IMG/VR virus record: IMGVR_UViG_3300028783_000001
Location: 1 to 64,000 of that record
Strand: one strand, 5' to 3'
Origin: a virus
Length of the DNA stretch: 64,000 nucleotides
Positions 9,951 to 27,602 of this stretch are shown piece by piece. A program made the translations under genes and the position numbers. Each line of letters starts with the position of its first letter. The stretch's first letter is position 1. Below the pieces are notes generated by a model. The model worked only from the letters and a program-made list of their open reading frames with translations. It made no database searches and had not been told where the DNA came from.

Positions 9951-10001
9951 GATTTCCGCACTAGAGCAGCTAAGCCAGCCAAAGAATGAAGGATAGTTAA
10001 A

Positions 10002-11591
10002 ATGAAGTTTCGTGGAATAGCGTTGTGCGGGCTAACGCACGCCGGCAAATCTGAATGTGCACGATTCTTGGAAGCTAATTTCAGGATGAAGAAGGTGCAT
10101 GTAAAGATCCTACTGGGCGAGATGATCGCTCCGCTTCTGATCAGGCTTGGTGTAGACATCGACGACATCCCTTCCTATGTATTTGGCGACAAGATCGATG
10201 AGCCGCTTCCAGGTGATCCGTTGCTGACAACGCGCGTATTGCTACAAGCCCAGGGCTGCGGCTTCCTGGATGAGCTTCCAGATCCGATGATCGCGCAGCG
10301 CCTAGTTGTCAATGAGGTCGGTGCGGGAATCCCCGTCGTCGTGGAGAGTGTACGCTACGCTCGCGAGGCAGAGTGGCTGAGAGCAAACGGCTTCCTACTC
10401 GTGCGAATCATTCGTCCTAGCTACCTGTCAAATGCTCCCGGCATGGATCACAAATCGGAGCACGACCAGATCTTCAGCGTCGACTACACGATTGCAAATG
10501 ACGGCACACTTAGTCAGCTGCTCGACGCCATAAGCACGATTGCTACAACCTGCGGGTTTGAGCCGATTGCAGCCTGTTCACGAGTCCCACGATTGGTGCT
10601 TGTCAACGGCAGGCCACGCGTTGGCAAGGACACGTTTGTCGAGTATGCAACGAGTTATATTCGGCGTAGATTCAACTGGCCAACCGATGTCTACAGCTCT
10701 ATCGATCCAGTCCGTGAGGCCCTGAAGGCAATCAACGTCGACGTCTCCGCAAAGGACGCTAAGGACCGCGACCTCTTGTCAGAGATGGGTGCGGCGCTTG
10801 AAAAGCACTGCGGCTTCCGGTCCTTTAGGACGATGCAGGTAATTCAGAGCACCTTTTTCGCAAACGGAACGGCCTTCGTCTACGTTCGCGAAGCCTACAT
10901 GATGGACAAGATTGAGCAGCAGATACACAAAGCCGCCATGGCGGGATTATTGCCGCACGTCCTAGTATCCAAGTTGTGGGTCACACGCATGCGTGCAACC
11001 GACCTACCTCAGCCTACGAACCACAGTGACGACATCGACGGTACCGAGGTTGAGTATGATTGGCAGGTAGTAAATAACGGTACGCTAGACGACTTGCGGG
11101 AGTTGGCGATCCGCTTTGTCGACGCATTGCTTTCCGGTAGGGAGAGTGGCTACTTCACACCTCTACACAGCCCTGGCACACTCGCGGACACTGGAATGTG
11201 TCCAGCTATATCAAACCATGCGAAAGCACCAGTGAATGAAGTCGTAAACGTAGATTACGATCTTGCTGGTTTTCTTGCGGAGGTCAAGGAAATGTTCAAT
11301 GATGACGTGGAGCACGAAGTTGTAGATCCGACAGCGGCTAATGCTGAGAAGCTCATGAACAACGTAGGGGATGACGCAATCTTCGACAAACCCTTCTATG
11401 GTGACGACTATTTACTGGCAGTCAAGACAGCGTTGGATGAGAAGCGTCACAGGGTAGAGGATACCATCAATAGAGTAGAAGACGTTGCCTTCAGCACGCA
11501 GCCAGCAGAGAAGAGGAAGAAGGAAAAACGTGATCCATTTACCACGTACATCCGTAGCTGGTATCGTGGTTTTGGTGGATTTGGTTGGTAA
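10002..11591 (+). CDS. tandem deoxynucleoside-monophosphate kinase-like protein (two P-loop domains)
   Basis: Walker A CGLTHAGKS and NGRPRVGKD; each domain ends with the dNMP-kinase HxS(E/D)...xNxGTL signature. Confidence 0.75.
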   Translation: MKFRGIALCGLTHAGKSECARFLEANFRMKKVHVKILLGEMIAPLLIRLGVDIDDIPSYVFGDKIDEPLPGDPLLTTRVLLQAQGCGFLDELPDPMIAQRLVVNEVGAGIPVVVESVRYAREAEWLRANGFLLVRIIRPSYLSNAPGMDHKSEHDQIFSVDYTIANDGTLSQLLDAISTIATTCGFEPIAACSRVPRLVLVNGRPRVGKDTFVEYATSYIRRRFNWPTDVYSSIDPVREALKAINVDVSAKDAKDRDLLSEMGAALEKHCGFRSFRTMQVIQSTFFANGTAFVYVREAYMMDKIEQQIHKAAMAGLLPHVLVSKLWVTRMRATDLPQPTNHSDDIDGTEVEYDWQVVNNGTLDDLRELAIRFVDALLSGRESGYFTPLHSPGTLADTGMCPAISNHAKAPVNEVVNVDYDLAGFLAEVKEMFNDDVEHEVVDPTAANAEKLMNNVGDDAIFDKPFYGDDYLLAVKTALDEKRHRVEDTINRVEDVAFSTQPAEKRKKEKRDPFTTYIRSWYRGFGGFGW

Positions 11592-11606
11592 TCAAGGAGA
11601 CTAGGG

Positions 11607-12668
11607 ATGATAATACAACCGAGTAAGGAAGCCATTCTCAAAGCCGCTGCGGCTATCAACAGCACAAAGGATGTGCGTGGTAGGATGTTATCACAGGACG
11701 CTATTAAGACCATATTAGAAGCGGCATACGCCGTCGATGGGGAAAACAATCTTAGCACTGCGGCTATAAAGGAGAGCGTTTTTAAACCTAGCGCAGAGGG
11801 TATCCGTGCAGCAACTAAAATCTTGGGCGACCATGGATGGTACTCCCTATCGTACAATTACAATGCGATGGATGAGGCACTTACGAAGGCTTATGAAACC
11901 GACCTTGCTGAGCCGATTCGATTTACGACGGACGGTGGGACTCACTACTCCGTCACGGTCGATCAGTTTAAGCGTCGGCTCTCTCTATTCGAGAGCGATA
12001 TCGCTTCATTAATCCGTCAGCGCGATGAAGCGGTTAAGGACAATGCCGGCTTACGCAGCAGGCTTTTTCAGCAGAAGCTTGAGAGCGAGACCGGTGGTGA
12101 TCATCACCTACAGCATGTAATCGCAACCTATAAGGCAACGCAGGAACGGCTTCAGAAGAGGGTTGCCGAACTGGAAGAGTCGCTCGATGAAGCGGCGCGT
12201 AAGGCTAGCGCAAATGCTAGTGTTACCAGATCCTTTATACTGTCAATCGACACGGCGCATCGTGTCATAGGGGACCTGCGCGAGCAGGTTACTGGGATTA
12301 CAATGGATCGCGATGGAGCGCGAGCCGTGGTGGCCGGATTAAACCGGGATATAGACTCGTTGAAGAAGCAGGTTGCCGATCTCACCGCTACAGCATACAA
12401 AGGTGTCAACCACACGATCTGCGCCGCTGAGGTATCGGGGACCAAGAATGGTCACTCATGGTTTGTCCGTGAGAGCATCGCTCGCCTTGAACGTGCTCGG
12501 TGGTATGTCGATAAGCATACCAAGAGAGTGATCGACTTCATTAACGGTAATTATTACTGCGAATGGACGGTATCGAGCTATGCCCGTGAGCCGATAGTGG
12601 TTGTGGGTCCAAGTGATGAGTATTGTTTGCAAAAGTTGTGCGACTATCTAATTCTAAAGGGGTATTGA
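11607..12668 (+). CDS. coiled-coil protein with duplicated N-terminal module
   Basis: PSKEAILKAA...LEAAYAVD and PSAEGIRAA...LTKAYETD; heptad-rich middle. Confidence 0.6.
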   Translation: MIIQPSKEAILKAAAAINSTKDVRGRMLSQDAIKTILEAAYAVDGENNLSTAAIKESVFKPSAEGIRAATKILGDHGWYSLSYNYNAMDEALTKAYETDLAEPIRFTTDGGTHYSVTVDQFKRRLSLFESDIASLIRQRDEAVKDNAGLRSRLFQQKLESETGGDHHLQHVIATYKATQERLQKRVAELEESLDEAARKASANASVTRSFILSIDTAHRVIGDLREQVTGITMDRDGARAVVAGLNRDIDSLKKQVADLTATAYKGVNHTICAAEVSGTKNGHSWFVRESIARLERARWYVDKHTKRVIDFINGNYYCEWTVSSYAREPIVVVGPSDEYCLQKLCDYLILKGY

Positions 12669-12895
12669 TGTCACAGCCAAATCACCACTCAATCGCTGAG
12701 GCGGTGGCCAACACCGCCTCAGGAATGATAGTCTCATTCGTGGCCGCCTACTATGTGTTTCCAATGGTAGGGGTTGCGATTAACGCTGGGCAAAATGCGG
12801 TGTTGACCGTCGTGTTTACCCTAATCTCGCTGATTCGCACCTATGCGTTTCGGCGTCTGTTTAATCGTCTTCACCAACAGGGATGGTGGCAGTAA
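12668..12895 (+). CDS. small two-TM membrane protein of a common phage family
   Basis: HSIAEAVANTASG...FTLISLIRTYAFRRLFN. Confidence 0.65.
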   Translation: MSQPNHHSIAEAVANTASGMIVSFVAAYYVFPMVGVAINAGQNAVLTVVFTLISLIRTYAFRRLFNRLHQQGWWQ

Positions 12896-12904
12896 GGAGT
12901 CGGC

Positions 12905-13216
12905 ATGAAGAGCTTATTTATGATCACCGTTACAGAGCCTAGATTCACCGTCGCGGTTGGGATGTCCGTGGCGTCTAAGTTTGGCGCGAGCATGCTGCAT
13001 ATAAATAGCCTCACGTGGATTGTAGGTGTTGATGATCTAGAGTGCAACGACATCTCCTACTCACTCGGACTATTAAAACGCGCGGGAAGAACCCAGATAA
13101 AGGAAATTACATATCCAAGTGCACTTGTTATGCGGGTATCATCATATTTCGGCCGCGCCAATCCCAACGTGTGGGAATCGCTAAAATCAATGTCTGGCTG
13201 GGAGCTGGAAAAATGA
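12905..13216 (+). CDS. hypothetical protein
   Basis: AAGGAG RBS. Confidence 0.55.
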   Translation: MKSLFMITVTEPRFTVAVGMSVASKFGASMLHINSLTWIVGVDDLECNDISYSLGLLKRAGRTQIKEITYPSALVMRVSSYFGRANPNVWESLKSMSGWELEK

Positions 13217-13566
13217 GCAACGAGATTGATGAGAACACGCCACCCGGAACCGATATTGTATGTATCCGTGAGATTAAGGTAGGGAGCCTAGCTGGAAATC
13301 CGCCGCGACCTACGGTCGGCGCATACTACACAATTAGCCAGGTGACCTTAGCGTCTCGGGGGTTCGGCCCACAAGGAGTCGTAATCTTTCTAGGAGAGTT
13401 GCCGCCCCACATAACTACCATATATGGGCAACCCTGTCGCATCGGATACGACGCTCGCGACTTCCGCCGCCTTGACAAGTGGGTCGCCAAGTTGGCGCAG
13501 ACGTCCAATCTATTTGTTCGTGCAGAGCAGGGTATCGATATTGATACTTTGGTAGACATAACGTGA
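13213..13566 (+). CDS. hypothetical protein
   Basis: ATGA overlap with upstream stop (MSNEID...). Confidence 0.55.
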   Translation: MSNEIDENTPPGTDIVCIREIKVGSLAGNPPRPTVGAYYTISQVTLASRGFGPQGVVIFLGELPPHITTIYGQPCRIGYDARDFRRLDKWVAKLAQTSNLFVRAEQGIDIDTLVDIT

Positions 13567-13573
13567 GGCTAAC

Positions 13574-13855
13574 ATGGCAGACAGGACGAAGGATCAGATA
13601 CTAGACCAGGCTGTATATGCCATTGCGAGTCTGCACCGGCACTATGGACCAGGCTTAACAGCAGAGGGTCTACAGCACGTTAGGAAGCTATTGTCTGAGA
13701 TTGGCTTCTGTACCGACTCCTGTTACCGGGTCGACGTATACGATGACGATCCGCTTGCAGACTTCTACCAGCGGATTGTCCAGCCAGGTGGATGGGATAA
13801 TTTAGACTACGATGACACCATCGCTAGAAGCATGCCAGGATATGAAGGGTATTAA
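13574..13855 (+). CDS. hypothetical protein
   Basis: GAGG RBS. Confidence 0.55.
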   Translation: MADRTKDQILDQAVYAIASLHRHYGPGLTAEGLQHVRKLLSEIGFCTDSCYRVDVYDDDPLADFYQRIVQPGGWDNLDYDDTIARSMPGYEGY

Positions 13856-13856
13856 C

Positions 13857-15299
13857 ATGAGCTATGTGGATAGGGTTAATGTGCGGTTGCTTCCGCCGGA
13901 GATTCGGGGTGAACCAGAAGCTCAAGCCATGTTGGGAGCATTCTGGTCACGTAGTCAGATGCCAATAGAGGAGAGATTAAAGACGTTTGATGATATATCA
14001 GATCTTAAGAATAAGTTGCAGCATATTGTAGTTGGATATGGTCATTCCAGTTTATTAGACATGGCAAACGTAGCAATCTTCATCGAGCGCATTCCAATTC
14101 TCGCGGCAGTAGCCATCGAGAACCACGCGATGTTTGCTGGTCAAGAGACTAGTACGCGCTATGTGGACTGGGGCACGGAGGAGTTTATCAATCCTTTCGC
14201 TGAGGTCGGAACCGACTGGTTGGCAGACGAGGGTGGGGTCGCGCGTACCTTGCACGTTTTGCACAAGTATTTGCGCGAGACTTATGTCGCAGTCGCAGAG
14301 GGCATGTTTAAGCGGCTCTGGAATAGCAGTGGTGGTTTAATCGCTGCTGATGAAACCGATGGTGGGATTGATCCTGCTGCAGCCAAGCGGGCGATGAAGG
14401 CGCGAGCCTTCGACGTCGCACGTGGGTTCCTTCCCGCCGCTGCGGTTACAAACGTCTGTTGGAGCGGTCGCCTAAGCTCAATCCTCGCGCACCTATCCGT
14501 GCTTCTTATTCATCCAGACCACACAATCGTGGACATCGCTCGCAAGATTCATACCGTCTTGCACGACGCCTTCCCGAAGGTCGTGCCGGTCGACATGCGC
14601 AGCGAAGACGCCAAATATGCAGAGGCGTATTGGTTTGGCCCGATGTCCACGATGGGTGCGCTGGAGCCTGCACTACTTACAATGACGGGCGACGACCTGA
14701 ATCGGTACGGCACTACCTATAAGCGTCAGCGCAAGGAGCGTGTTCCTCCGAGCATTGGTGCAAGGGTCGACGTCATGATCCAGTCGTGGATCGACTACGG
14801 ATCGTTTCGCGACCTGAATAGGCACCGCGTCGGTTACAAGGACGTCTACCCACCAGACCTCGTCGCCGACATCCATCCCTGGTATATTGAGATGGCTGGC
14901 GACTCGCTTCCTGCAGACTTCACAAACACGCTCAAGCACCTGCAGAACAGGTTCAGCGATGCCTACTTCGAGGCTAGCAGGGACATCGACAAGTACTACC
15001 CCGACTATGTGCGTTACGAAAACATGCTGGCCTACGGCGCACCGCTTGGCGTTTTGGTGCCAGTAAACTACAAGATGGATCTTGCGCAGTACATCTACCT
15101 CGTTGAGTTGCGCAGCGGTATCGATGTCCATCCGACGCTGCGCAAGATGATCCACGAGGCCCACGCCGACTTCAAAAACTTCCACAGCAAGGGAATCAAT
15201 ATCCAGATTCATGCCGACGAGCGACCTGATCCTGGATTCAACGGCTTCATGCTCTCGCGCGGCGGTCAGACAATCCTCATAGGAGGGCAAGCCATATAG
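13857..15299 (+). CDS. thyX: flavin-dependent thymidylate synthase, long two-domain type
   Basis: YGHSSL, QETSTRY, FDVARGFLPAA, FRDLNRHR, YLVELRS...HPTLR. Confidence 0.85.
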   Translation: MSYVDRVNVRLLPPEIRGEPEAQAMLGAFWSRSQMPIEERLKTFDDISDLKNKLQHIVVGYGHSSLLDMANVAIFIERIPILAAVAIENHAMFAGQETSTRYVDWGTEEFINPFAEVGTDWLADEGGVARTLHVLHKYLRETYVAVAEGMFKRLWNSSGGLIAADETDGGIDPAAAKRAMKARAFDVARGFLPAAAVTNVCWSGRLSSILAHLSVLLIHPDHTIVDIARKIHTVLHDAFPKVVPVDMRSEDAKYAEAYWFGPMSTMGALEPALLTMTGDDLNRYGTTYKRQRKERVPPSIGARVDVMIQSWIDYGSFRDLNRHRVGYKDVYPPDLVADIHPWYIEMAGDSLPADFTNTLKHLQNRFSDAYFEASRDIDKYYPDYVRYENMLAYGAPLGVLVPVNYKMDLAQYIYLVELRSGIDVHPTLRKMIHEAHADFKNFHSKGINIQIHADERPDPGFNGFMLSRGGQTILIGGQAI

Positions 15300-15355: not shown

Positions 15356-16471
15356 ATGAACGACGCTGTAATTGAAGACCTCCAGTGCGACCGCGCCCTC
15401 GCAAGCGTTCGTCGCATTGACAGGGTAGTCCCCCACCCAGACGCGGACCTGCTCGACCTCGCTATCATTGGCGGCTGGCAGTGCGTTACGCAGAAGAGCA
15501 ACAACTTCAAGGAGGGTGATCTCGTCTGCTACTTTGAGATTGATTCATTCTTACCAATCGAAGATCAGTGGGAGTGGTTACGGAAGTCAAGCTACCGCAA
15601 GATGGGTGGGCGTGAAGGATTCCGCATCAAGACGATTAAGCTGCGTAAGGAGCTATCGCAGGGCCTGATCATGCCGCTGGAGGAGATTGGCTTTATTTAT
15701 GATCACTCAGATGCAAAATGGTATTCTAGCCCAGAGCACGCTGCTAGCGTTTTAGAAGGTGATGATCTTACATCCTACCTTGGCGTCGTCAAGTGGGACC
15801 CGCCGCTTCCGGCCTGTCTTGGTGGAGTAGCACGCGGCAACTTCCCCACCTTCATTAAGAGGACTGACCAGAGCCGCGTGCAAAACCTCTCGCGCTACCT
15901 AGACTTCCACAGTGAGCGAGAATTTGAGGTCACGCTAAAGCTCGACGGATCATCGTGTACGGTGTATAGCTGCCCAGACGACGTCGTTCCAAGGCAGGGC
16001 GTCTGCTCGCGCAACCTCGATCTGGTTGAGACGGACGGCAACTCATTTTGGCAGATCGTGCGTCAGACCCAGCTGCTAGAGGCGATGCACCATGTTGGTG
16101 GAACCTACGCCATCCAGGGCGAGCTAATGGGTCCTGGAATCCAGAAGAATCCAGAGAATTTGCCGGCGCTGGCTCTCTACGTATTCGACGTCTACGCCAT
16201 CGATACGTGCCGCTACCTCAACCCACATGAGCGTCGCGACTACCTGGCGCAGCTTATGGAGCAGGGAGCAACGGTAGACGAGGCACCGGTCATTATCTCA
16301 GCCACTACGCTAAAGCCCTACGGGAGCATTGCTGGCCTACTCGCTCACGCCGCAGCTATTCCGTCAATCAACAATAAGATTGCTGAAGGTGCTGTGTGGA
16401 AGAGCTGCTCCGGTGATCGATTCTCGTTTAAGGTGATCTCGAACAAATATCTGCTCAAGGAGAAGGACTGA
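15356..16471 (+). CDS. ATP-dependent RNA ligase (DRB0094/Rnl2-like, N-terminal OB domain)
   Basis: KLDGSS (motif I), VCSRN, QGELMGPGIQKN, FDVY, EGAVWK, FKVISNKYL. Confidence 0.9.
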   Translation: MNDAVIEDLQCDRALASVRRIDRVVPHPDADLLDLAIIGGWQCVTQKSNNFKEGDLVCYFEIDSFLPIEDQWEWLRKSSYRKMGGREGFRIKTIKLRKELSQGLIMPLEEIGFIYDHSDAKWYSSPEHAASVLEGDDLTSYLGVVKWDPPLPACLGGVARGNFPTFIKRTDQSRVQNLSRYLDFHSEREFEVTLKLDGSSCTVYSCPDDVVPRQGVCSRNLDLVETDGNSFWQIVRQTQLLEAMHHVGGTYAIQGELMGPGIQKNPENLPALALYVFDVYAIDTCRYLNPHERRDYLAQLMEQGATVDEAPVIISATTLKPYGSIAGLLAHAAAIPSINNKIAEGAVWKSCSGDRFSFKVISNKYLLKEKD

Positions 16472-18321: not shown

Positions 18322-18738
18322 ATGTGGTATCAATTGACGATCCTCAGACCGTTGGCAGACCACCACACACTAGACGTGGACGCCGACTACTGGTTGCGAA
18401 ACGTAAATATACCACTCGCGCCCTTCTTTATCATATTTGAGTCGGTAACTGCTGACCCACGATACATTGGAAACGATGCTTACCTGCGGAGTAGGCTCTA
18501 CGATTATACAGAGCGTAGACTATTCAACATGATCAGCCGTGATGAATTGAGCGACGGCAACGCTGTGTGCGACTCAACGAACAATACTCCGAATCTGATA
18601 GAGTCGGGCAACGTGATGCTAGAGGTCCACATGAGAGCATCTCCTTCGATTGAATACGGCAGACTCCGCATGACATTATTCGATCCGTCACTGGCTCAGA
18701 AACCGATAGTGGAGACTCATCATGATCAAAATTCTTGA
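18322..18738 (+). CDS. hypothetical protein
   Basis: ORF 18253-18738; likely start MWYQL. Confidence 0.5.
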   Translation: MWYQLTILRPLADHHTLDVDADYWLRNVNIPLAPFFIIFESVTADPRYIGNDAYLRSRLYDYTERRLFNMISRDELSDGNAVCDSTNNTPNLIESGNVMLEVHMRASPSIEYGRLRMTLFDPSLAQKPIVETHHDQNS

Positions 18739-19456
18739 GGGCACCGATCCGATTAGCTCGCTGGCTGAGGCGAGCGATGCAACCTGGTTCATTCCTCACG
18801 TAGAGGGATCTGACAAGGTTTTATGTCTGATGCTAGGCATGAGCAATATGTTTGGCAATATCTCCATCGCCAAAAGCGACCGGCGTCACGTGTTTCCGCG
18901 CCATTACCATGGGCCAAGACACGTCGGCCGCATGTGGCAGGAGTACATCGCCATCGAGCGTGGGGACACCTACTACACCCAATACCGATCTCGCGAGATG
19001 AGAGACACTGTAGCCTACTTCGCATGGTATCACGACGCTGCCCTATGTGCCGGACCTGCTGGTCAGAGTGAGCATCTATCGGCCATGTGCTTTTCAGAGA
19101 CGATGGCCACTAGCCCTGATTGCCTGGAACCGAAGCTAGCCCATACCGTGACGCAAGCAATCCTCTACACAGCCCAGCACACCAGTTACATGCCCTGGCT
19201 AAGCGACTCCATTAAGCTGCTTCTCGACCTCGACCTTGCAGAGCTAGGCACCGACCGCTACACGATAAACGGTGAGCTGATTCGTAAGGAGTATGACTAC
19301 GTCGATCACATGACGTTTGTACATGGACGCATCAAGTTTTTGCAAGCAATGCTAGCGCGGGAGAAGATTTATTATAATCCCTGCTTTGCAGACCGTGAAG
19401 GCCGTGCTCGCGAAAATATCCAAGCCGACCTAAACCTACTTGGTTATGTACCGTGA
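18722..19456 (+). CDS. HD-domain metal-dependent phosphohydrolase
   Basis: RHYHGPRH, AWYHDA, SEHLSA, LLDLDLAELG, IRKEY. Confidence 0.8.
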   Translation: MIKILEGTDPISSLAEASDATWFIPHVEGSDKVLCLMLGMSNMFGNISIAKSDRRHVFPRHYHGPRHVGRMWQEYIAIERGDTYYTQYRSREMRDTVAYFAWYHDAALCAGPAGQSEHLSAMCFSETMATSPDCLEPKLAHTVTQAILYTAQHTSYMPWLSDSIKLLLDLDLAELGTDRYTINGELIRKEYDYVDHMTFVHGRIKFLQAMLAREKIYYNPCFADREGRARENIQADLNLLGYVP

Positions 19457-19761
19457 AATACGATCCAAGTCTGTTGCCGACCGACCAGCGAGCCGCCTTA
19501 GTTGCGCGGCTCGCTATGTTGAATCCAACTCAGCAGCTTGACCTGCTAGAGCGTCTAGGGCGTCAGCCCTACCTCTACTACGTCGTCCGTATGAAGAACC
19601 GGCGTGCGGCTCGCTATGACCGAGATGAAGTGCTGGCGATGCGCGCAGTTAGTGGATCGACCATCGTTGGTGTAAAAAGTGATGGAGTAAAAATGGTAAC
19701 GTATAGAGCCCGCGACGGTGCGTGGTTTCCCGTCACTGGTGTTCGGAGAGCCATTACATGA
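19453..19761 (+). CDS. hypothetical protein, paralog of next gene
   Basis: Shares LxRLxRQPY...RxDRD...GV..DG with 19758-20198. Confidence 0.6.
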   Translation: MKYDPSLLPTDQRAALVARLAMLNPTQQLDLLERLGRQPYLYYVVRMKNRRAARYDRDEVLAMRAVSGSTIVGVKSDGVKMVTYRARDGAWFPVTGVRRAIT

Positions 19762-20198
19762 CTGAAATTATGATGAACCCCTACGCGCAACTTGCTAAGC
19801 AGGCTCGTGCGCTACTGCGCCTGGAGTTGGAATTTTCTCCAGAGGAGCGGGCCAAATCTTCGTGGTTGTCTCAGATTGAGTTTTGTGGAACCAAGATTGT
19901 CCTCGGCAAGGGCGGCGCAAACACCCTATTCTATTCACTGGGCAACGGCGAGCGTCAGATCGGCTACCCAAACGTTGTGGTCGACATGCTCGACAGGCTG
20001 TCGCGTCAGCCATACGTGCTCTACGTCGTTCAGGTCGGCAGCAAGCACGCAACTCGCTTCGACAGGGACCAGGCTCTCGCATTCAAGCCGGTTGCCGGTG
20101 CAAGTATCTTTGGAGTAGCTTTAGACGGATCGAAGCACCCAGCCTATCGTGCTAAGAGCGCGTTGTCTGGATCCAGAAAATGGATGGCCGTAAAGTGA
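19758..20198 (+). CDS. hypothetical protein, paralog of previous gene
   Basis: ATGA overlap; shared C-terminal domain. Confidence 0.6.
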   Translation: MTEIMMNPYAQLAKQARALLRLELEFSPEERAKSSWLSQIEFCGTKIVLGKGGANTLFYSLGNGERQIGYPNVVVDMLDRLSRQPYVLYVVQVGSKHATRFDRDQALAFKPVAGASIFGVALDGSKHPAYRAKSALSGSRKWMAVK

Positions 20199-20809
20199 GG
20201 GACCTGACCTCCTTCATTAAGATGTCCGGCGGGCATTCGTCAGCAGATCACATGCGCGAGCGCGTAGCTGTTCTCGACGGGTTCCACACGCCGCGCGAGG
20301 CAGTCGTAGCTCTGATGAAATGCGAGCAAATCCACGACAACGTGTGGGAGCCGGCCAACGGTTTTTCCCGTATCTCCAGAGTGCTCCGTGAGTATGGTCT
20401 GCGTGTAGCCACAAGCGACATCCATCGGTGGCACTCCGGTACAAAGGTTGAACGAGCGTTTGCCGACTTCAGCGACCTGCCAAGTCCGTTTCGTCGGAAT
20501 GGGTGCGATATCATAACAAATCCTCCATTCGTTCGGGCGCAAGAGTTTGTCGAACACTCCATGGACCTTCTGCACGACGGTGGCCGATTGTGTCTCCTGC
20601 TCAGGCTCCAGTTCCTAGAGGGTAACAAGCGCGCAGATATGTTTAAGAAGTATCCTCCTCTCCGGGTGCATGTATTCTCCTACCGTCTACCGCGCATGCA
20701 CCGCTTCCTCTATCGAGGCCCGCAGGGAGGTAGCACGATTGCATTTGCATGGTTCGTTTGGAGTAAGGGGTACAAAGGCCCCACTGAAATTAAATGGATA
20801 ACGCGATGA
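20195..20809 (+). CDS. putative DNA N6-adenine methyltransferase
   Basis: VWEPANG (motif I-like), DIITNPPF (motif IV), LLRLQFLEG, AFAWFVW. Confidence 0.75.
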   Translation: MRDLTSFIKMSGGHSSADHMRERVAVLDGFHTPREAVVALMKCEQIHDNVWEPANGFSRISRVLREYGLRVATSDIHRWHSGTKVERAFADFSDLPSPFRRNGCDIITNPPFVRAQEFVEHSMDLLHDGGRLCLLLRLQFLEGNKRADMFKKYPPLRVHVFSYRLPRMHRFLYRGPQGGSTIAFAWFVWSKGYKGPTEIKWITR

Positions 20810-21237
20810 CCACCAGAGCCAGACGGCGTCGCATCGACGCTACCTTGCACGAAAACCCCCGCGCCGTCGATGCCCCAAACCACCTTCCAGACGTAGACGC
20901 TCCGCGCGTGCTAGACTTTGTGCGTGAGCTCACGAGCTTACTGGTTGGTGAGGTCGCCCCAACCCAGCCTCTCATGCTAGATATCCTGAATCGGATGAAG
21001 CGCATGCATCTAGGCGCGCTCGGTGTAGATCCGGTAGATGAAACCAACGTGGAGATTACCGTTGGATTGAATTTACGTGGCTGCGAGGCATTTGATCGCG
21101 TGTGGGGCGTTGGCCTCTCACCAAGCCCTTCCGTTTCGCGCAAGCGTATCCTAGATGGGGATGAGGATCTTCAGTTTGAGCAGTTAGTGCGCGCGACAGT
21201 TTCTGTATCTACGACGACGATAAAGTATGAATCATGA
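20806..21237 (+). CDS. hypothetical protein
   Basis: ATGA overlaps on both ends. Confidence 0.55.
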   Translation: MTTRARRRRIDATLHENPRAVDAPNHLPDVDAPRVLDFVRELTSLLVGEVAPTQPLMLDILNRMKRMHLGALGVDPVDETNVEITVGLNLRGCEAFDRVWGVGLSPSPSVSRKRILDGDEDLQFEQLVRATVSVSTTTIKYES

Positions 21238-22031
21238 AATCTGTTTTGATTGGCGACCAGCGAGTCGTCTTAGGGGATTGCATTGAAGGTATGGGACTGA
21301 TGCGCGCTGGCAACGTCGACGTCATTACCACCTCCCCACCATACAACATTGGTATGGATTATAGCAAGCATAAAGACCGCATGGATGATAGTGCCTACCT
21401 TTCCTGGATGGGAGATGTCGCAGCCGCCTGCCGTCGCGTGTTGAAGCCGGGAGGCTCCATCTTCCTAAACGTCGGCAGCAACGGAACGCGGCCCTGGACG
21501 GCAATAGACGTTGCATGCGCGTTTCGCAAATACCTCGTCCTACAGAATATTATCGTATGGGTAAAGAGCGTAGCCATCGGAGACCGCACGCACGGGCACT
21601 TCCGTCCGATAACATCGAAGCGCTACCTCAATGGTTGCCACGAGATGATCTACCACTTCAGCCTAGATGGAAATGTCGAGCTAGATAGGCTGGCAATCGG
21701 CGTTCCTTACACGGGCGAGCGTAATCCCAGTCGGTTTGGTCATGGTAGGCAGACTCACTGTCGCGGCAACACCTGGCACATCGGCTATGAGACTGTTCAT
21801 TATAATGAACAGCGATTCAACCATCCAGCGGCCTTCCCACTAACGCTTCCATACACGTGCATGAGATTGCATGGGGGTAAAGGACTACGCGTGTTGGACC
21901 CGTTTCTGGGAACCGGCACGACGCTTCTTGCCTCAGCGATGCTAGGCCACCGAGGAGTTGGGTTTGATGTAGATCCTGCATACGCACGGACAGCGGTTAG
22001 CCGCCTCCGGTCACTAAGCTCCAAAACGTAG
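21234..22031 (+). CDS. site-specific DNA methyltransferase, beta class (N4-C/N6-A)
   Basis: TSPPY precedes HPAAFP and LDPFLGTGTT. Confidence 0.9.
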   Translation: MKSVLIGDQRVVLGDCIEGMGLMRAGNVDVITTSPPYNIGMDYSKHKDRMDDSAYLSWMGDVAAACRRVLKPGGSIFLNVGSNGTRPWTAIDVACAFRKYLVLQNIIVWVKSVAIGDRTHGHFRPITSKRYLNGCHEMIYHFSLDGNVELDRLAIGVPYTGERNPSRFGHGRQTHCRGNTWHIGYETVHYNEQRFNHPAAFPLTLPYTCMRLHGGKGLRVLDPFLGTGTTLLASAMLGHRGVGFDVDPAYARTAVSRLRSLSSKT

Positions 22032-22033
22032 GA

Positions 22034-22822
22034 ATGGGTATCATCATGGGAATACCAGTGATCATTCTAGCAGGTGGGTTGGGTACGAGGTTGTCTGAAG
22101 AGACCTCAGTGCGACCGAAGCCAATGGTTGAGATTGGCGGTATGCCGATTCTCTGGCATATAATGAAGATGTACTCCGCTCACGGCTTCAATGATTTTGT
22201 GATATGCTTGGGCTACAAGGGTTATCTAATAAAGGAGTTTTTCTCAAATTATTATCTACATATGTCCGACGTCACTTTCGATATGAAGACGGGTGCGATG
22301 GAGATTCATCGTAGCTACACCGAACCTTGGCGCGTTACGCTAGTGGACACAGGCGACCAAACCCAGACGGGCGGCCGTCTCAAGCGTGCACTGGATTATG
22401 TTAAGAATGAAGAGGTGTTTGCGCTCACCTACGGCGACGGACTCTCGAACATCGACCTTACTGCGGAGCTGGCTTTTCACAAAGCGCACGGTAAGCTCGC
22501 AACGGTCGCCGCTGTTCGCCCAACAACGCGCTTTGGTGCTATGACACTAGACGGGGAAAGAGTGATCGAGTTTGCCGAAAAACCAGTAGCAGAAGCGAGC
22601 TGGGTTAGCGGTGGATTCTTTTTCCTCTCTCCCAAGGTTGGTGAACTTATCGAAGACGACTCCACGATATGGGAGCGTGGCCCAGCAATTGCGCTTGCAT
22701 TAAAGAACGAATTACGTGCCTTCGAACATGACGGATTTTGGCAGCCAATGGATAATCTTCGAGACCAACAGCTTCTGGATTTCCTATGGAAGTCGGGCAA
22801 CCCACCCTGGAAGGTATGGTGA
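22034..22822 (+). CDS. rfbF: glucose-1-phosphate cytidylyltransferase
   Basis: ILAGGLGTRLSEET..RPKPMVEIGG, TQTGGRLKR, LTYGDG, GFWQPMD, PPWKVW. Confidence 0.93.
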   Translation: MGIIMGIPVIILAGGLGTRLSEETSVRPKPMVEIGGMPILWHIMKMYSAHGFNDFVICLGYKGYLIKEFFSNYYLHMSDVTFDMKTGAMEIHRSYTEPWRVTLVDTGDQTQTGGRLKRALDYVKNEEVFALTYGDGLSNIDLTAELAFHKAHGKLATVAAVRPTTRFGAMTLDGERVIEFAEKPVAEASWVSGGFFFLSPKVGELIEDDSTIWERGPAIALALKNELRAFEHDGFWQPMDNLRDQQLLDFLWKSGNPPWKVW

Positions 22823-22825
22823 ATT

Positions 22826-23875
22826 ATGCGCATCCTCATAACGGGTAATATGGGCTATGTAGGTTCGGTGCTTACACGTCATCTGCGCCGCGTCTCGGAA
22901 TCGACTTATATCGCAGGATACGACTCAGGTTTTTTCGCTCACTGTCTCACTACAACAAGTGAGCTCCCTGAGCGCTTCCTGGATGTACAACGATTCGGCG
23001 ACGTGCGATCCGTGATAAGTGCAAGCATGCTCCACGGCTTCGACGCTGTAGTTCATCTAGCGGCAGTATCAAACGATCCAATGGGCAACCGATTCGAGGC
23101 GGTGACCGATGAGATCAATCACCGCGCGAGCGTCGCACTAGCTGAGGCAGCCGCAGCGGCCGGTGTTAAAAACTTCGTCTTTGCGTCGAGCTGTAGTGTA
23201 TATGGCTTTGCAGAGGATGGCCATGCTCGTAGTGAGGAAGATACACTAAACCCACTAACGGCCTACGCGCGTTCGAAGATTGCTACCGAGGAGTCGCTTA
23301 AGAATATCAATCTCAATGGTATGACGGTAACGGCGTTGCGCTTCGCCACCGCATGTGGGATGTCTGATCGTCTGCGTCTTGATCTTGTGTTAAACGACTT
23401 CGTTGCCTGTGCGCTAGCGTCCGGTGAGATAACCGTGATGAGCGATGGTACCCCATGGAGACCTCTTATCGAAGTGCGCGATATGGCGCGGGCTATTGAG
23501 TGGTCAATCGCGCGACCTGCCGACAACGGCGGGCAGTTTTTAGTGGTGAACGCTGGCTCCAACAGTTGGAACCTTCAAGTAAAGGATCTAGCCCAGAGCG
23601 TCGCTGGTGTGGTCGGTAACACGACGGTGTCGATCAATACCGACGCACCACCTGACAAGCGTTCATATGAGGTCAACTTCGGTCTGTTCGAAAAATTAGC
23701 GCCCAACCACCAGCCATTGCAAACGCTCGATTCCACTATCACTAGATTGCGGGACGGGTTACGTGCGATAAACTTCAATGATCCAAACTTCCGACAGTCG
23801 CAACTCATCCGGCTAAGAGCACTAGAGAAGCATATGCTCGATGGACGGTTAACTGCCAATCTTCGCTGGGTGTAA
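22826..23875 (+). CDS. extended SDR NDP-sugar epimerase/oxidoreductase
   Basis: TGNMGYVG, HLAAVSNDP, SSCSVYG, YARSK. Confidence 0.88.
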   Translation: MRILITGNMGYVGSVLTRHLRRVSESTYIAGYDSGFFAHCLTTTSELPERFLDVQRFGDVRSVISASMLHGFDAVVHLAAVSNDPMGNRFEAVTDEINHRASVALAEAAAAAGVKNFVFASSCSVYGFAEDGHARSEEDTLNPLTAYARSKIATEESLKNINLNGMTVTALRFATACGMSDRLRLDLVLNDFVACALASGEITVMSDGTPWRPLIEVRDMARAIEWSIARPADNGGQFLVVNAGSNSWNLQVKDLAQSVAGVVGNTTVSINTDAPPDKRSYEVNFGLFEKLAPNHQPLQTLDSTITRLRDGLRAINFNDPNFRQSQLIRLRALEKHMLDGRLTANLRWV

Positions 23876-23894
23876 ACAGCTAGGGACTACATCA

Positions 23895-24452
23895 ATGATC
23901 TTTCACGATACACCGATACACGACGCCCGCCTTATCGAACTTGAGCGGCGAGGTGATGATCGCGGCTTCTTCGCTCGACTCTATTGCGAAGACGAATTTG
24001 CGGCTGAGGGGCTGGAGACGCACTTTGTTCAAGCAAACAATTCCTTCTCCCAGGTGAGAGGCACGCTTCGGGGAATGCACTACCAGTTACCACCATCTGC
24101 AGAAGTTAAAATCGTGCGCGCCATCAAGGGTGCCTTGTGGGACTGCATTGCAGATCTACGGCCCGATTCGCCTACATTCGGTGAATGGTTTGGAACGGAA
24201 TTAAACGACGAAAACCGTCGAATGCTATATGTTCCTCGTGGTGTAGCCCATGGGTTTCTGACGCTCACCGATAACACTGAGGCACTCTACCTAGTGAGCG
24301 ACTTCTACAACGCAGAGGCTGAGCGTGGCCTACGTTTTGATGATCCTTGGCTCAACATCAAATGGCCTACCGTTCCTGTGGAAATTTCCCATAAGGATAG
24401 AAGCTGGCCCGACTTCGATGCAAGCCGTGCGTGGGTAAAGGAAGGGCAATAA
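23895..24452 (+). CDS. rfbC: NDP-4-keto-sugar 3,5-epimerase (RmlC/RfbC family)
   Basis: DDRGFF, GTLRGMHYQ, DLRPDSPTFG, YVPRGVAHGF. Confidence 0.92.
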   Translation: MIFHDTPIHDARLIELERRGDDRGFFARLYCEDEFAAEGLETHFVQANNSFSQVRGTLRGMHYQLPPSAEVKIVRAIKGALWDCIADLRPDSPTFGEWFGTELNDENRRMLYVPRGVAHGFLTLTDNTEALYLVSDFYNAEAERGLRFDDPWLNIKWPTVPVEISHKDRSWPDFDASRAWVKEGQ

Positions 24453-24453
24453 G

Positions 24454-25398
24454 ATGACCCAGAAGATTTTGGTAACTGGCGCGCGCGGCTATCTCGGCGG
24501 ACGTCTGGTGAAGTACCTAGTCTCCCGTGGAAAAAGTGTGGTCGGTAGCACCAGAGCGTGGGGGATAAGCAATCCTCATGAATGGCCAGATTGCGTTCCT
24601 CTCGTCACTATCAATCCTACAGATAGCCCTCTCGTGACGAGAACCTTATTGGAAGGCATTGACTGTATATACCACCTCTCTGCAGCAAACGCAGCGCGTT
24701 CGTCACGGGATCCAGACGCGGCCTTATTTGAGACTGCTACCGGAACCAGACGTCTGATCGGAGCGGCAATTCTCGCAGGGGTGAAGCGATTCATCTTCAT
24801 TTCACCGATTCAAGTTTACGGAAACCCTCTATTTGGTGAGATCACAGAGAGCACTATTCCGAAACCAACCAACCCATACGCGATTACCCATCTAGCTGGT
24901 GAGCATTTTGCGCTAGCAGCCTCTAACCGAATCGACGTTACGGTAGTTCGGCTGTCCAATGGAACAGGAACTCCTGCGTGGCTCGACGGTGATCATTGGA
25001 TGCTAGCTGGAAACGATTTTGCTCGGCAGGCTGTTGAGACTGGTGAGATTGTTGTCAATGCACCAGGGCAGTGGCGAGATTTCATAGCTCTTTCAGACGT
25101 CTGTAGGGCGCTGTGTACCCTTTCGGAAAAGACGGGAATCAGCGTGTTAAATTTGAGTAGCGGAAAGGCGAGCCGCCTTGGTGATCTAGCTGCGTTAACA
25201 GCGTCGGTCGCGAGCCTGCTACTGGGAAAGCAAATTCTCGTCAACGGTCCAGGCGATCTTGGTGACTCCATACCACCGTTTCATATCTCCACCGAATTGC
25301 TAACCTCTCTTGGGTCTGTTCGGTTTATTCCATCAGGGGATGAGGCGTTGGAGTTGGAGCAGGCTGTAACAATTCAGAGGTTAATACACAGGAGATGA
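24454..25398 (+). CDS. extended SDR NDP-sugar reductase/epimerase with YxxxH in place of YxxxK
   Basis: TGARGYLG, QVYG, NPYAITH, RDFI. Confidence 0.8.
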   Translation: MTQKILVTGARGYLGGRLVKYLVSRGKSVVGSTRAWGISNPHEWPDCVPLVTINPTDSPLVTRTLLEGIDCIYHLSAANAARSSRDPDAALFETATGTRRLIGAAILAGVKRFIFISPIQVYGNPLFGEITESTIPKPTNPYAITHLAGEHFALAASNRIDVTVVRLSNGTGTPAWLDGDHWMLAGNDFARQAVETGEIVVNAPGQWRDFIALSDVCRALCTLSEKTGISVLNLSSGKASRLGDLAALTASVASLLLGKQILVNGPGDLGDSIPPFHISTELLTSLGSVRFIPSGDEALELEQAVTIQRLIHRR

Positions 25399-25402
25399 TG
25401 AA

Positions 25403-26188
25403 GTGAAGAAGGAACTTACAATAGCGGACCTACGCCCCGCCGCATACAACCCACGCCTCATTACACCTACCCAGAAGCTGGCCCTCCGTGATAGCTACCT
25501 CAAGTATGGGGATCTTAGTGGTATCACTTTCAATACGACGACCGGCAACCTTGTTGGTGGGCATCAGCGCTGCGAGTTGTTCAAGAAGAGTTCACGTGTC
25601 GTTCGCAATGCCCACAAAGATTCGATGGGAACCGTTGCCGTTGGGCATGTTGAGGTACCCGGCAAAGACGGTAAGACGCTAAAGATTCCATACCGAGAGG
25701 TCGCATGGACTGTAGACGTCGAGATGGCTGCTAATATCGCAGCAAACGCCGCTGGCGGTAGCTTCGACCAGGTGAAGCTCGGTAAGATCATCAAGCGCCT
25801 GGAGAAGCATAAGTTTCCCATTGAGTCGATTCCCATCGATTCCATAGAGCTATCCCGTGCTATACGAACATTCGAGTATTTGAATAGGGACAACGACAAG
25901 ACGGTACCTGTAAGCGGACATCTTCGCCGTATAGCAAAAGCCGATATGAGCGAGCATTGGCAAGGAATGCCAGAATACGAACACAAAGATATGATGGCTC
26001 ACCGCAAGATAATCGTAAACTTCGCGTCCGACGACGACGTAGCTAAGTTTGCTGCTAGGATCGGCCAGAAGATTGGACCTAATGAACGCAGCATCTGGTT
26101 TCCACCAGCCCGTATCGACACTTACGCTGATAAATGTTACACTGCTCAGCCTGCGGTGAGACGAGTAGCAAGTCGCAAGCAGGGATAA
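25403..26188 (+). CDS. ParB/Srx-like N-terminal domain fused to a glycosyltransferase-associated small domain
   Basis: LRPAAYNPR...LVGGHQR; C-terminal WQGMPEY...IVNF...SIWFP. Confidence 0.75.
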   Translation: MKKELTIADLRPAAYNPRLITPTQKLALRDSYLKYGDLSGITFNTTTGNLVGGHQRCELFKKSSRVVRNAHKDSMGTVAVGHVEVPGKDGKTLKIPYREVAWTVDVEMAANIAANAAGGSFDQVKLGKIIKRLEKHKFPIESIPIDSIELSRAIRTFEYLNRDNDKTVPVSGHLRRIAKADMSEHWQGMPEYEHKDMMAHRKIIVNFASDDDVAKFAARIGQKIGPNERSIWFPPARIDTYADKCYTAQPAVRRVASRKQG

Positions 26189-26192
26189 GGCC

Positions 26193-27131
26193 ATGGCGTC
26201 ACCACAATTTCCAATCTACATTTGCAGCAAGGGCCGTTCCCAGTATGGGCACACGATGCATGCGCTCGACCAGATGGGCGTACCTTACCGCATCATAGTG
26301 GATAAGTCTGACTACAGGGCGTACGCCAATGTGTTTGGAGCGAAGCGCATACTCGTACTAGATAGCTTCTATGAGCGCGAGTATGAGACGTGCGACGACC
26401 TGGGCATGTCGAAGTCGCTAGGCCCTGGGCCGAAGCGCAACTTTGCGTGGGACCACGCGATAGATGAAGGCCACGCATGGCACTGGATCATTGACGATAA
26501 TATCGCCGGCTTCTTTCGCTTCAACCTAAACCTAAAGACCCCTGTTGGTGACGGCACCATCCTCAGGTGCATGGAAGACTTCGTACTGCGTTACGAAAAT
26601 GTTGGAATGGCCGGCCCAAACTACTTCATGTTCGTGTCGCGCAAGTCGGCAACTCAGCCGCCGTTCGTCCTCAACACGCGCATCTACTCCTGCAACCTAA
26701 TCCGCAATGACCTACCTCTATCGTGGAGGTGCCGCTACAACGAGGATACCGACATATCGCTGCAGGTGCTCAAGTCGGGTTGGTGTACGGTTTTGTTCAA
26801 CGCCTTCCTGCAAGAGAAGCTGCCCACGCAGACTGTGCCGGGCGGGAACACCGCCGACTTCTATGTCAAGGAAGGCACGCGAGAGAAGTCGAAGATGCTA
26901 TGCCGTATGCACCCTGATGTTACCGAGTTGGTGGATAGGTTTGGGCGCGATCACCACTACGTGGATTACAGTGGGTTCCGCACGCCGCTCATATTCAAGA
27001 AGGATCAGCAGATTTCGGGTGTAAACAACTATGGTATGACACGTATCCACGTTGACCGTTCCCTACGCCGTTCCCTGGGAGATGCTATGCGCTCAGGCAG
27101 ACAGAAGGTCAAGGATTCCAAGGCCAGCTAG
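26193..27131 (+). CDS. GREB1-like / TET-associated-type glycosyltransferase (GT-A fold)
   Basis: PIYICSKGR, RNFAWDH, WIIDDNI (DD metal motif), TRIYSCNLI, YNEDTD, GGNT. Confidence 0.82.
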   Translation: MASPQFPIYICSKGRSQYGHTMHALDQMGVPYRIIVDKSDYRAYANVFGAKRILVLDSFYEREYETCDDLGMSKSLGPGPKRNFAWDHAIDEGHAWHWIIDDNIAGFFRFNLNLKTPVGDGTILRCMEDFVLRYENVGMAGPNYFMFVSRKSATQPPFVLNTRIYSCNLIRNDLPLSWRCRYNEDTDISLQVLKSGWCTVLFNAFLQEKLPTQTVPGGNTADFYVKEGTREKSKMLCRMHPDVTELVDRFGRDHHYVDYSGFRTPLIFKKDQQISGVNNYGMTRIHVDRSLRRSLGDAMRSGRQKVKDSKAS

Positions 27132-27192
27132 CTCCTGTGGATGCCCAGGAATCCAGGGGTTTACCCCTAGGTGAAAATAGCTGAAAATTCGC

Positions 27193-27221
27193 TTGACATC
27201 CGGGCTAGGGTATGTTATTCT
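27193..27221 (+). promoter_or_regulatory. sigma70-type (early) promoter
   Basis: TTGACA-17nt-TATTCT with extended -10 TG. Confidence 0.75.
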
Positions 27222-27269
27222 AGGCTTAGAGGCTAAGGAAGCCTTCCACCTAGAACCCAGGAGATTAAC

Positions 27270-27557
27270 ATGAAAACTTCCGCCCTTGCTCGTACCGTCG
27301 CTCCTGCTGCCAAGCGCGCCAAGGTTCCTGCTACCAAGCAGGTCGCTACCAAGCACAAGATCGAATCGATCTATCGCAAGGAGTCGCTGCTGGACCAAGC
27401 CCTTCGGCTCCTTACTCGCAAGAACGGCGCGACGAAGGAAGATTTGACCGCCATCTCTTGGGCATACGGCCTGCTCTATCGTATTCGCCAAAACTACAAG
27501 GTCGTGTCGGAAGGTGATCGTGGGAGCCTCGTCTATCACGTCGCCAAGCAGCTCTAA
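27270..27557 (+). CDS. small basic putative DNA-binding early protein
   Basis: AGGAG RBS; K/A-rich N-terminus, wHTH-like C-terminus. Confidence 0.6.
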   Translation: MKTSALARTVAPAAKRAKVPATKQVATKHKIESIYRKESLLDQALRLLTRKNGATKEDLTAISWAYGLLYRIRQNYKVVSEGDRGSLVYHVAKQL

Positions 27558-27568
27558 CCGAATCGAGC

Positions 27569-27602
27569 AAAAGGCGGGTGCAGATATCTGCACCCGCCTT
27601 TT
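27569..27602 (+). terminator. perfect 34-bp palindrome, bidirectional terminator-like
   Basis: AAAAGGCGGGTGCAGAT|ATCTGCACCCGCCTTTT. Confidence 0.8.

Follow-up and report, generated by a model that had tools for sequence, protein, structure and literature searches.

Glycosylated phage DNA defeats restriction enzymes and CRISPR and triggers dedicated bacterial defences. To our knowledge, all glycosylated phage bases derive from 5-hydroxymethylcytosine (5hmC), 5-hydroxymethyluracil (5hmU) or 5-hydroxycytosine (5hoC), made either by ThyA homologues or by TET-type oxidases that in some cases act after a C5-methyltransferase (C5-MTase), and the donors characterised so far are all uridine diphosphate (UDP)-sugars. 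That such glycosylation can be fed by phage-made sugar nucleotides is already known: RB69, DLP3 and RL38J1 make UDP-arabinofuranose or UDP-galactofuranose for this purpose (PMC13326640), and phage DNA glycosyltransferases (GTs) can depend on an adjoining epimerase (bioRxiv 10.1101/2023.12.21.572611). The characterised phage members of family PF20691 glycosylate DNA, namely the T2/T6 enzyme (PMC13216743) and the TET-linked GT-A enzymes (bioRxiv 10.1101/2023.12.21.572611), and "solitary" phages that carry a TET-associated glycosyltransferase (TAGT) without a known acceptor account for 288 of 753 genomes (PMC13216743). Phage ParB-like proteins have been shown experimentally to activate DNA thymine dioxygenases on double-stranded DNA (dsDNA) (2026, PMC13229309). 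In this study, we analysed a window of 64,000 nucleotides, the first 64 kb of the 168,737-bp IMG/VR virus record IMGVR_UViG_3300028783_000001 (CheckV completeness 66%), in which nine co-oriented genes (20180-27131, + strand; table 1) encode two DNA methyltransferases, a small protein, four sugar-nucleotide enzymes, a ParB-like protein and a TAGT (TAGT1). We tentatively propose a model of ParB-assisted, post-replicative DNA glycosylation with a cytidine diphosphate (CDP)-sugar made by the phage, a model that names no acceptor atom and to which we give a probability of about 0.4.

TAGT1 belongs to the TET-associated / T2-T6 beta-glucosyl-HMC-alpha-glucosyltransferase family, reaching 132.7 bits on PF20691 in a six-frame search as well. 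Its AlphaFold2 (AF2) model (predicted local distance difference test, pLDDT, 90.5) has the β1-α-β2...β4 arrangement followed by D101-D102-N103, a DxD-type motif, as in GT-A enzymes; among its 61 Foldseek matches at E<=0.001, the listed ones with a family title are all GT-A (ColGalT1, SpsA, GnT-I, FKRP), and FKRP, matched with bound CMP, is a GT-A enzyme with a CDP-activated donor. Two substitutions, E37D and A81K, are unique to TAGT1 among 33 aligned members. The former lies at the end of β-strand 2, where Glu is found in 31 of 31 relatives and in the second TAGT of the genome (TAGT2), at a site that we liken to SpsA Asp39, which we take to be where GT-A enzymes read the donor base. By analogy, E37D and A81K fit a changed donor nucleotide, of which they are no proof.

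The gene directly 5' of TAGT1 encodes a member of the ParB/Srx family, as indicated by the fold of its N-domain and by its GxxR box. Its AF2 model (pLDDT 82.3) retrieves the ParB N-domains 5k5d and 6sdk as top Foldseek matches (E 6.4e-4, probability 1.00, with a TM-score of only ~0.3), and the box reads GGHQR where the consensus of relatives is GHGR; Pfam gives no match at E<=0.01. An alignment of relatives further reveals a conserved C-terminal domain of ~75 aa with W186, M189 and P190 invariant. A scan of viral contigs with TAGT1 yielded 80 loci (51-64% identity), and orthologues in this identity range occur in 50 whole related records, of which 12 are at least 90% complete. In ~60 of the 80 loci a ParB-like gene with a product of ~200 aa stands directly 5' of the TAGT gene, usually overlapping its start, and in three (L026, L044 and L058) the ParB C-terminal domain is fused to the TAGT N-terminus; a word-based search with this domain for other fusion partners gave 5 matches only. 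The complex predicted for the ParB-like protein and TAGT1 scored 0.82, against 0.00 for the best of three controls. Among solved complexes, 58 of 80 attain this mark, as do 2 of 110 mismatched pairs, counts that hold only roughly here, given that our own alignments were used. At least 63% of contacts recur across the runs, with a partner pLDDT of at least 70. The predicted interface joins ParB residues 182-198 and 239-249 to TAGT1 residues 108-130, 150-158 and 274-287, and the three invariant residues fall within it, which supports a model where the ParB-like protein binds TAGT1 via a C-terminal docking domain. Conserved adjacency, fusions and the predicted complex together mark the ParB-like protein as a genuine TAGT1 partner; the tie of this GT family and of ParB-like partners to phage DNA modification, asserted in a preliminary description of this DNA, is sustained. 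For a GT, a ParB-like partner extends in a natural way what is known of dioxygenase activation, and is so far undescribed. A look 5' of ParB in the relatives for a conserved gene that might encode a divergent dioxygenase brought up none, the upstream genes being small and varied, with none of suitable size conserved.

The pair of genes is small and widespread, and is found in cultured Vibrio and Shewanella phages; the pair, or the fusion of docking domain and TAGT, is carried by the cultured phages Vibrio 1.076.O, Vibrio 1.124.O and henriette 12B8. In the relatives it usually stands just 5' of terminase and portal genes of several types, with head-morphogenesis genes near. The cultured Vibrio phage 1.076.O encodes a 389-aa TAGT homologue (NVP1076O_12, L114:4677-5846; 48% identity) with an N-terminal extension of ~108 aa, placed between portal and head-morphogenesis genes, and in Vibrio phage Kuja two TAGTs, each ~450 aa long, stand in tandem close to a thyA gene.

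The four genes between the methyltransferases and the ParB-like gene form a sugar-nucleotide cassette. RfbF satisfies its equivalog model over the full length, residues 8-262 aligning to 4-258 of 1tzf, and family membership, as judged from sequence, shows it to be a producer of CDP-D-glucose. The next enzyme, a short-chain dehydrogenase/reductase (SDR1), has as its top PDB match 6vo6 (E 1.6e-20), which we take to be the C4 dehydrogenase Cj1427. Nucleoside diphosphate (NDP)-hexose 4,6-dehydratases carry an acidic pair after the catalytic Ser/Thr (TDE, SDK or SxE); SDR1, with the motifs ASSCSVYG and YARSK, is without this pair, reading S-C-S at these positions, while SDR2 reads P-I-Q. On the CDP-glucose 4,6-dehydratase model TIGR02622, SDR1 attains 21.2 bits (cut-off 278.45) and SDR2 is not listed. 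Since neither SDR bears a dehydratase signature, the sugar need not be 6-deoxy, and the chemistry may be one of oxidation, epimerisation and reduction with the 6-OH kept. A route of oxidation, epimerisation and reduction is used by Cj1427, Cj1430 and Cj1428 to make GDP-L-gluco-heptose. The third enzyme is a member of the RmlC family, with E 1e-42 against PDB RmlC structures and the GMHYQL...K...Y blocks conserved with respect to 7pvi. SDR2, whose best homologues are ~50% identical, reads SPIQVYG...YAITH where the signature of its subfamily is STIHVYG...YAITH, and is probably a C4 reductase, albeit atypical. Throughout this subfamily (P0123-P0149), which is seemingly uncharacterised, YxxxH stands in place of the classical YxxxK (HPYAITH). 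The cassette product would be a CDP-linked, probably L-configured hexose or 6-deoxyhexose. Of the proposal that the phage makes its own CDP-activated, epimerised sugar, the capacity for CDP-glucose and an RmlC-type epimerase flanked by two SDRs are upheld; what the pathway yields, and whether it is complete, is uncertain, given the SDR motifs.

The origin of the cassette is bacterial. SDR1 homologues occur in Proteobacteria at 65-82% identity, and two bacterial contigs carry a four-gene block (nucleotidyltransferase of 256 aa, SDR of 348 aa, RmlC-like protein of 188 aa and SDR of 312 aa) embedded in surface-polysaccharide clusters with Wzz, ABC transporter, GT2 and RgpF/WsaF genes. Identity to this block is 61-64% for RfbF, 77-82% for SDR1 and 72-77% for the RmlC-type enzyme, but 24% for SDR2; thus, a bacterial cassette was captured and its last enzyme swapped, SDR2 not being an orthologue of the bacterial counterpart. 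The GC content of the cassette (0.517) has drifted to the level of the phage genome (0.526), the bacterial copies standing at 0.58-0.62. Its four frames are all intact, and 11 contigs, which come from several samples, encode one and the same SDR2 protein. No sister phage emerged from scans of viral contigs: RmlC and PolA queries found nothing, and RfbF retrieved one doubtful locus, L095, resembling a bacterial polysaccharide cluster. The 80 TAGT loci likewise contain no homologues of the sugar genes or of either methyltransferase. The combination of CDP-sugar genes with a ParB-TAGT pair is unique so far.

A second TAGT is encoded elsewhere in the record, next to an SDR of 403 aa that scores 312.9 bits on NF041015 over positions 2-371 of 384. 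This is below the cut-off of 575, so that the neighbour is SqdB-like and not a proven SqdB, that is, a UDP-sulfoquinovose synthase; an exact look-up of the protein found no record. TAGT2 is without the C-terminal segment that contacts ParB in TAGT1, and a second ParB-like gene is missing from the phage. Sugar-nucleotide genes thus adjoin each of the TAGTs; in fact, the genome has just three genes of the SDR epimerase family and just two of the TAGT family, all three of the former being neighbours of the latter, and GT1, GT2, AGT or BGT genes were not detected in it. O-antigen conversion by a Gtr-type system was rejected, as the search brought up no GT2 or other GT gene and the TAGT family is not of the membrane-bound Gtr type.

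Table 1. Features of the locus and its surroundings. Positions are those of the window, except for TAGT2 and its cluster, which are placed on the whole record.
Feature	Position	Strand	Evidence and remarks
dCTP-deaminase-like gene	9062-9622		nucleotide-metabolism cluster 9062-15299, upstream of the locus
529-aa protein with N-terminal dNMP kinase domain	10002-11591		phrog_139 E 5e-27
Long-form ThyX, 495 aa	13812-15299		
RNA ligase	15356-16471		
DNA methyltransferase 1, 209 aa, probable N6-adenine type	20180-20809	+	phrog_799 E 8.4e-51; NPPF at residue 114
Small protein, 147 aa (143 aa in public calls)	20794-21237	+	overlaps its methyltransferase neighbours by 16 and 4 nt
DNA methyltransferase 2, 265 aa, beta-class N6/N4	21234-22031	+	PF01555 N6_N4_Mtase 136.4 bits; SPPY at residue 34; LDPFLG at residue 221
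RfbF, glucose-1-phosphate cytidylyltransferase	22034-22822	+	TIGR02623 403 bits (cut-off 300.25); PDB 1tzf E 1.8e-110
SDR1, 349 aa, extended SDR of GalE/C4-oxidoreductase type	22826-23875	+	PF01370 E 1.2e-36
RmlC-type NDP-4-keto-sugar 3,5-epimerase, 185 aa	23895-24452	+	TIGR01221 179.2 bits (cut-off 155.75); PF00908 E 1.1e-63
SDR2, 314 aa, YxxxH subfamily	24454-25398	+	PF01370 E 5e-31
ParB-like partner, 261 aa	25403-26188	+	phrog_620 E 2.2e-17; N-terminal ParB/Srx nucleotide-binding-type domain, GGHQR box
TAGT1, 312 aa, GT-A glycosyltransferase	26193-27131	+	PF20691 131.7 bits (cut-off 27.5), profile 1-204/205; phrog_842 E 2.1e-39
Promoter-like site	27193-27221	+	TTGACA-17-TATTCT with TG extension, 10/12 matches; opens the next transcription unit
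TAGT2, 259 aa	166216-166995	-	PF20691 E 4.7e-30; overlaps the stop of the SqdB-like SDR
TAGT2 cluster	166216-168732 (L008:16216-18732)	-	TAGT2, SqdB-like SDR, CDO_I-like small cupin cut by the contig end

The nine genes listed for the run in the preliminary description are all present, with family assignments that hold in profile searches; the start given there (20195) lies 15 nt inside the first open reading frame (ORF), which begins at 20180. Set among replication and nucleotide-metabolism genes, the run has junctions of -19, -16, -4, +2, +3, +19, +1, +4 and +4 nt, the first being the overlap of the first methyltransferase gene with the upstream gene 19722-20198. In public gene calls, genes 2 and 4 begin slightly further downstream. 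Because the strong promoter-like site stands 3' of the TAGT1 stop, the run is taken to end at TAGT1. At this border one public call gives a 166-aa ORF overlapping the end of TAGT1 (27093-27593, - strand) and others a 95-aa ORF behind the promoter-like site (27270-27557, + strand), of which the latter looks more likely. The phage comes from bog metagenomes and has a genome of roughly 250 kb. The run is found unchanged on 11 public contigs, drawn from several samples, the longest of 224,537 bp (ENA ERZ27249177 k141_417441), with copies of the phage in ENA, NCBI (QGNH01001871.1) and JGI (3300029911/13/22); a megablast of the locus against phage records gave no match. Walking the longest contig in 10-kb steps added 76,701 bp upstream of the window, and together with the record (11,364-bp overlap, 0 mismatches) at least 245.4 kb of the phage are known.

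Overall, we suggest that the locus may be a late-acting modification module. RfbF would provide CDP-D-glucose, from which SDR1 would produce a 4-keto sugar by oxidation at C4, possibly without 6-deoxygenation; the RmlC-type enzyme, its family shown and its substrate presumed, would then epimerise C3 and/or C5, and the atypical SDR2 would reduce C4 to yield a CDP-linked hexose or 6-deoxyhexose of L configuration. Held by the ParB C-terminal domain, TAGT1 would move this sugar to replicated phage DNA before packaging, the ParB-like protein giving it access to dsDNA much as ParB-like activators do for phage thymine dioxygenases. The two adjacent methyltransferases would add separate methyl marks. 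TAGT2, ParB-independent and beside the SqdB-like enzyme, may add a second or alternative sugar. The overall interpretation given earlier is thus retained in part: the gene assignments, CDP-glucose, the GT family and the ParB partner are supported, whereas an acceptor pathway did not come to light, the rfbF link is not general and transfer to DNA is something that we infer.

Several observations weigh against this model. In animals, the TAGT relative GREB1 is reported to glycosylate protein. Neither Tet_JBP (PF12851), nor a ThyA-like protein (PF00303), nor a C5-MTase (PF00145) was found in the 168.7-kb record, in a search that for Tet_JBP had no positive control, and the Pfam hits of the further 76.7 kb, with ~3 kb of the long contig and the end join unread, contain no Tet_JBP, ThyA, C5-MTase, GT or sugar gene; the lack of TET/JBP or hydroxymethylase first noted for the window therefore extends to 245 kb. 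Thus, TAGT1 is not accompanied there by TET/JBP or by a hydroxymethyl-/hydroxy-pyrimidine pathway, and the ParB-like protein does not qualify as a 5mYOX-associated one, as no Tet_JBP match exists in the phage or in the 50 related records. The long-form ThyX, the dCTP-deaminase-like gene and the dNMP kinase suggest ordinary thymine. The relatives that possess the ParB-TAGT pair are similarly without Tet_JBP and ThyA-like genes (0 of 50 records, hence 0 of the 12 near-complete ones) and mostly without C5-MTase (present in 6 of 50, and in 4 of the 12). Thousands of divergent 5mYOX-like contigs escape the Pfam model (PMC13229309). A non-DNA acceptor, with TAGT1 and its ParB-like partner placing the CDP-sugar on a protein (of the virion, the phage or the host) or on a small molecule, would account for the missing acceptor-making enzyme, here and in the near-complete relatives, as well as for GREB1 and for the position of the pair in the packaging and head module of the relatives, beside terminase, portal and head-morphogenesis genes; besides, GT contigs without 5mYOX or ThyS were mostly deemed doubtful DNA modifiers (bioRxiv 10.1101/2023.12.21.572611). 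We nevertheless regard it as somewhat unlikely, if still a serious rival, as is the use of a host UDP-sugar. The phage TAGTs characterised to date all have DNA as their substrate (PMC13216743; bioRxiv 10.1101/2023.12.21.572611), the ParB fold of the obligate partner is associated with the binding of DNA and CTP and with the activation of DNA dioxygenases (PMC13229309), two DNA methyltransferases adjoin the locus, and late DNA-modifying genes, ParB-methyltransferase fusions (phrog_498 match) among them, are typically placed just before the terminase as well.

The donor is open to a similar debate. A PF00483 sugar nucleotidyltransferase is present in none of the 50 related records, the 12 at least 90% complete included, even though their TAGTs are 51-64% identical to TAGT1, so that co-occurrence of rfbF with this GT family, a check proposed at the outset, is not general. 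As its orthologues do without such an enzyme, the family normally uses host donors, and TAGT1 may do so too. DNA would then be glycosylated with a UDP-sugar of the host, the cassette being an unrelated auxiliary block that, for example, reshapes host surface polysaccharide; the natural setting of the cassette in surface-polysaccharide clusters and the tight packing general among phage genes agree with this, yet we consider it unlikely, because the genome has no other detectable GT to use the cassette sugar, TAGT2 also adjoins a sugar-nucleotide enzyme, so that the adjacency is seen twice, the replacement of the fourth gene suggests that the product was shaped to differ from the host polymer, and TAGT1 departs from its family at two sites, invariant elsewhere, in the half predicted to bind the nucleotide. 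The SDRs raise another objection to a phage-made sugar: neither looks like a 4,6-dehydratase, so that the pathway may be altered or impaired, and, to judge from its motifs, SDR2, with Pro for the invariant Thr at the catalytic position and Gln for an invariant His, may fail at the last step, which is a real caveat. Taken to the extreme, the cassette would be decaying bacterial cargo, crippled in its last step and yielding no finished sugar, with DNA only methylated and perhaps ordinarily glucosylated. Its absence from every other viral contig except the doubtful L095 would agree, as would the missing dehydratase signature, but cargo in decay would hardly combine four intact frames and a GC content at phage level with an SDR2 identical on all 11 contigs; SDR2 also keeps the YxxxH of its subfamily, and Ser117 beside the Pro could stand in for the lost Thr. 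We hold such decay to be very unlikely. A bolder version of DNA glycosylation, in our opinion distinctly improbable, would make the ParB-TAGT pair self-sufficient, needing no hydroxy(methyl)pyrimidine precursor: ParB would open or clamp dsDNA and the sugar would be set on a site not so far known to carry one, for instance an exocyclic amine of a canonical or methylated base, with a CDP-L-hexose used here and a sulfoquinovose-like sugar by TAGT2. Being a binder of cytidine nucleotides, the ParB fold might also help to handle the CDP-donor. If true, this would be new chemistry in acceptor, sugar and nucleotide carrier.

The remaining genes of the run and its surroundings add further detail. DNA methyltransferase 1 is recognized by its PHROG match and NPPF motif only, with no match in Pfam or NCBIfam, and the small protein matches nothing in Pfam, NCBIfam or PHROG. 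DNA methyltransferase 2, encoded by gene 3, is an N6/N4 enzyme on account of PF01555 together with a catalytic (D/N/S)PP(Y/F) motif, SPPY preceding the S-adenosylmethionine (SAM) motif. Upstream of the window is the gene of a third N6/N4 methyltransferase, 900 aa long. Within the same gene run, a 244-aa protein (18722-19456; phrog_19425 "phosphohydrolase", E 3.9e-24) ends ~700 nt 5' of the first methyltransferase and might act on nucleotides. ThyX was dropped as a candidate hidden hydroxymethylase, its long form being that of many bacteria, with no PDB match by sequence and no sign of unusual chemistry, as was a 353-aa protein between the dNMP kinase and ThyX, given its low-confidence model and chance-level matches. 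The upstream 76.7 kb encode replication proteins, a topoisomerase, ribonucleotide reductase (RNR) alpha, an RNA ligase, an Fpg/Nei glycosylase, NUDIX/Tad6 and a sigma-70 factor; the DnaB-like and GyrB-like genes there bear inteins.

When compared with described systems, the locus combines familiar parts in an unfamiliar way. With the T2/T6 and TET-associated enzymes, TAGT1 shares the Pfam family, the GT-A fold, the DxD-type motif and a phage genome where it is encoded among DNA-metabolism genes; those clusters have two successive GTs, and here a second family member is present in the genome. Conversely, none of the alpha-/beta-GT, dCMP hydroxymethylase, TET/5mYOX and C5-MTase of those systems was found here, a ParB partner is present, and neighbouring CDP-sugar genes take the place of UDP-sugars of the host pool. 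The 5mYOX-ParB pairs also consist of a short ParB-like protein, made up of a nucleotide-binding and a C-terminal domain without an obvious DNA-binding domain, encoded beside a DNA-modifying enzyme, often near GTs and terminases, and their partners are cognate (PMC13229309). In our case, however, the partner is a GT and not a dioxygenase, 5mYOX is absent from the phage and the 50 related records, and the docking module is C-terminal and sometimes fused to the GT. Own sugar-nucleotide enzymes beside a DNA GT are likewise seen in phages making UDP-arabinofuranose (RB69, DLP3, HY126) or UDP-galactofuranose (RL38J1) (PMC13326640) and in GT-epimerase pairs (bioRxiv 10.1101/2023.12.21.572611); while RB69, DLP3, HY126 and RL38J1 rely on UDP donors and on 5hoC or 5hmC from a ThyA homologue or from a methyltransferase plus TET, this locus has an apparently CDP-linked donor, four genes taken over from the making of bacterial polysaccharide and no acceptor pathway that we could find. 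The closest proven CDP route, that of CDP-6-deoxy-L-altrose/CDP-D-fucose in C. jejuni HS:41 (PMC12369002), proceeds through a cytidylyltransferase, a 4,6-dehydratase, a 3,5-epimerase and a C4 reductase. The order of chemistry is the same, and the bacterial relatives of the phage cassette also lie in surface-polysaccharide clusters, yet SDR1 is without the 4,6-dehydratase signature, a pyranose/furanose mutase is missing and SDR2 is of the YxxxH subfamily. Thus, three features set the locus apart, the CDP carrier, the ParB-GT pair and the lack of a known acceptor pathway. With respect to UDP-fed DNA glycosylation, the locus points to a CDP-linked L-type sugar as donor and, in parallel with the dioxygenases, to a ParB-like obligate partner of a DNA-type GT, which would extend the role of ParB-like proteins as activators of DNA modification.

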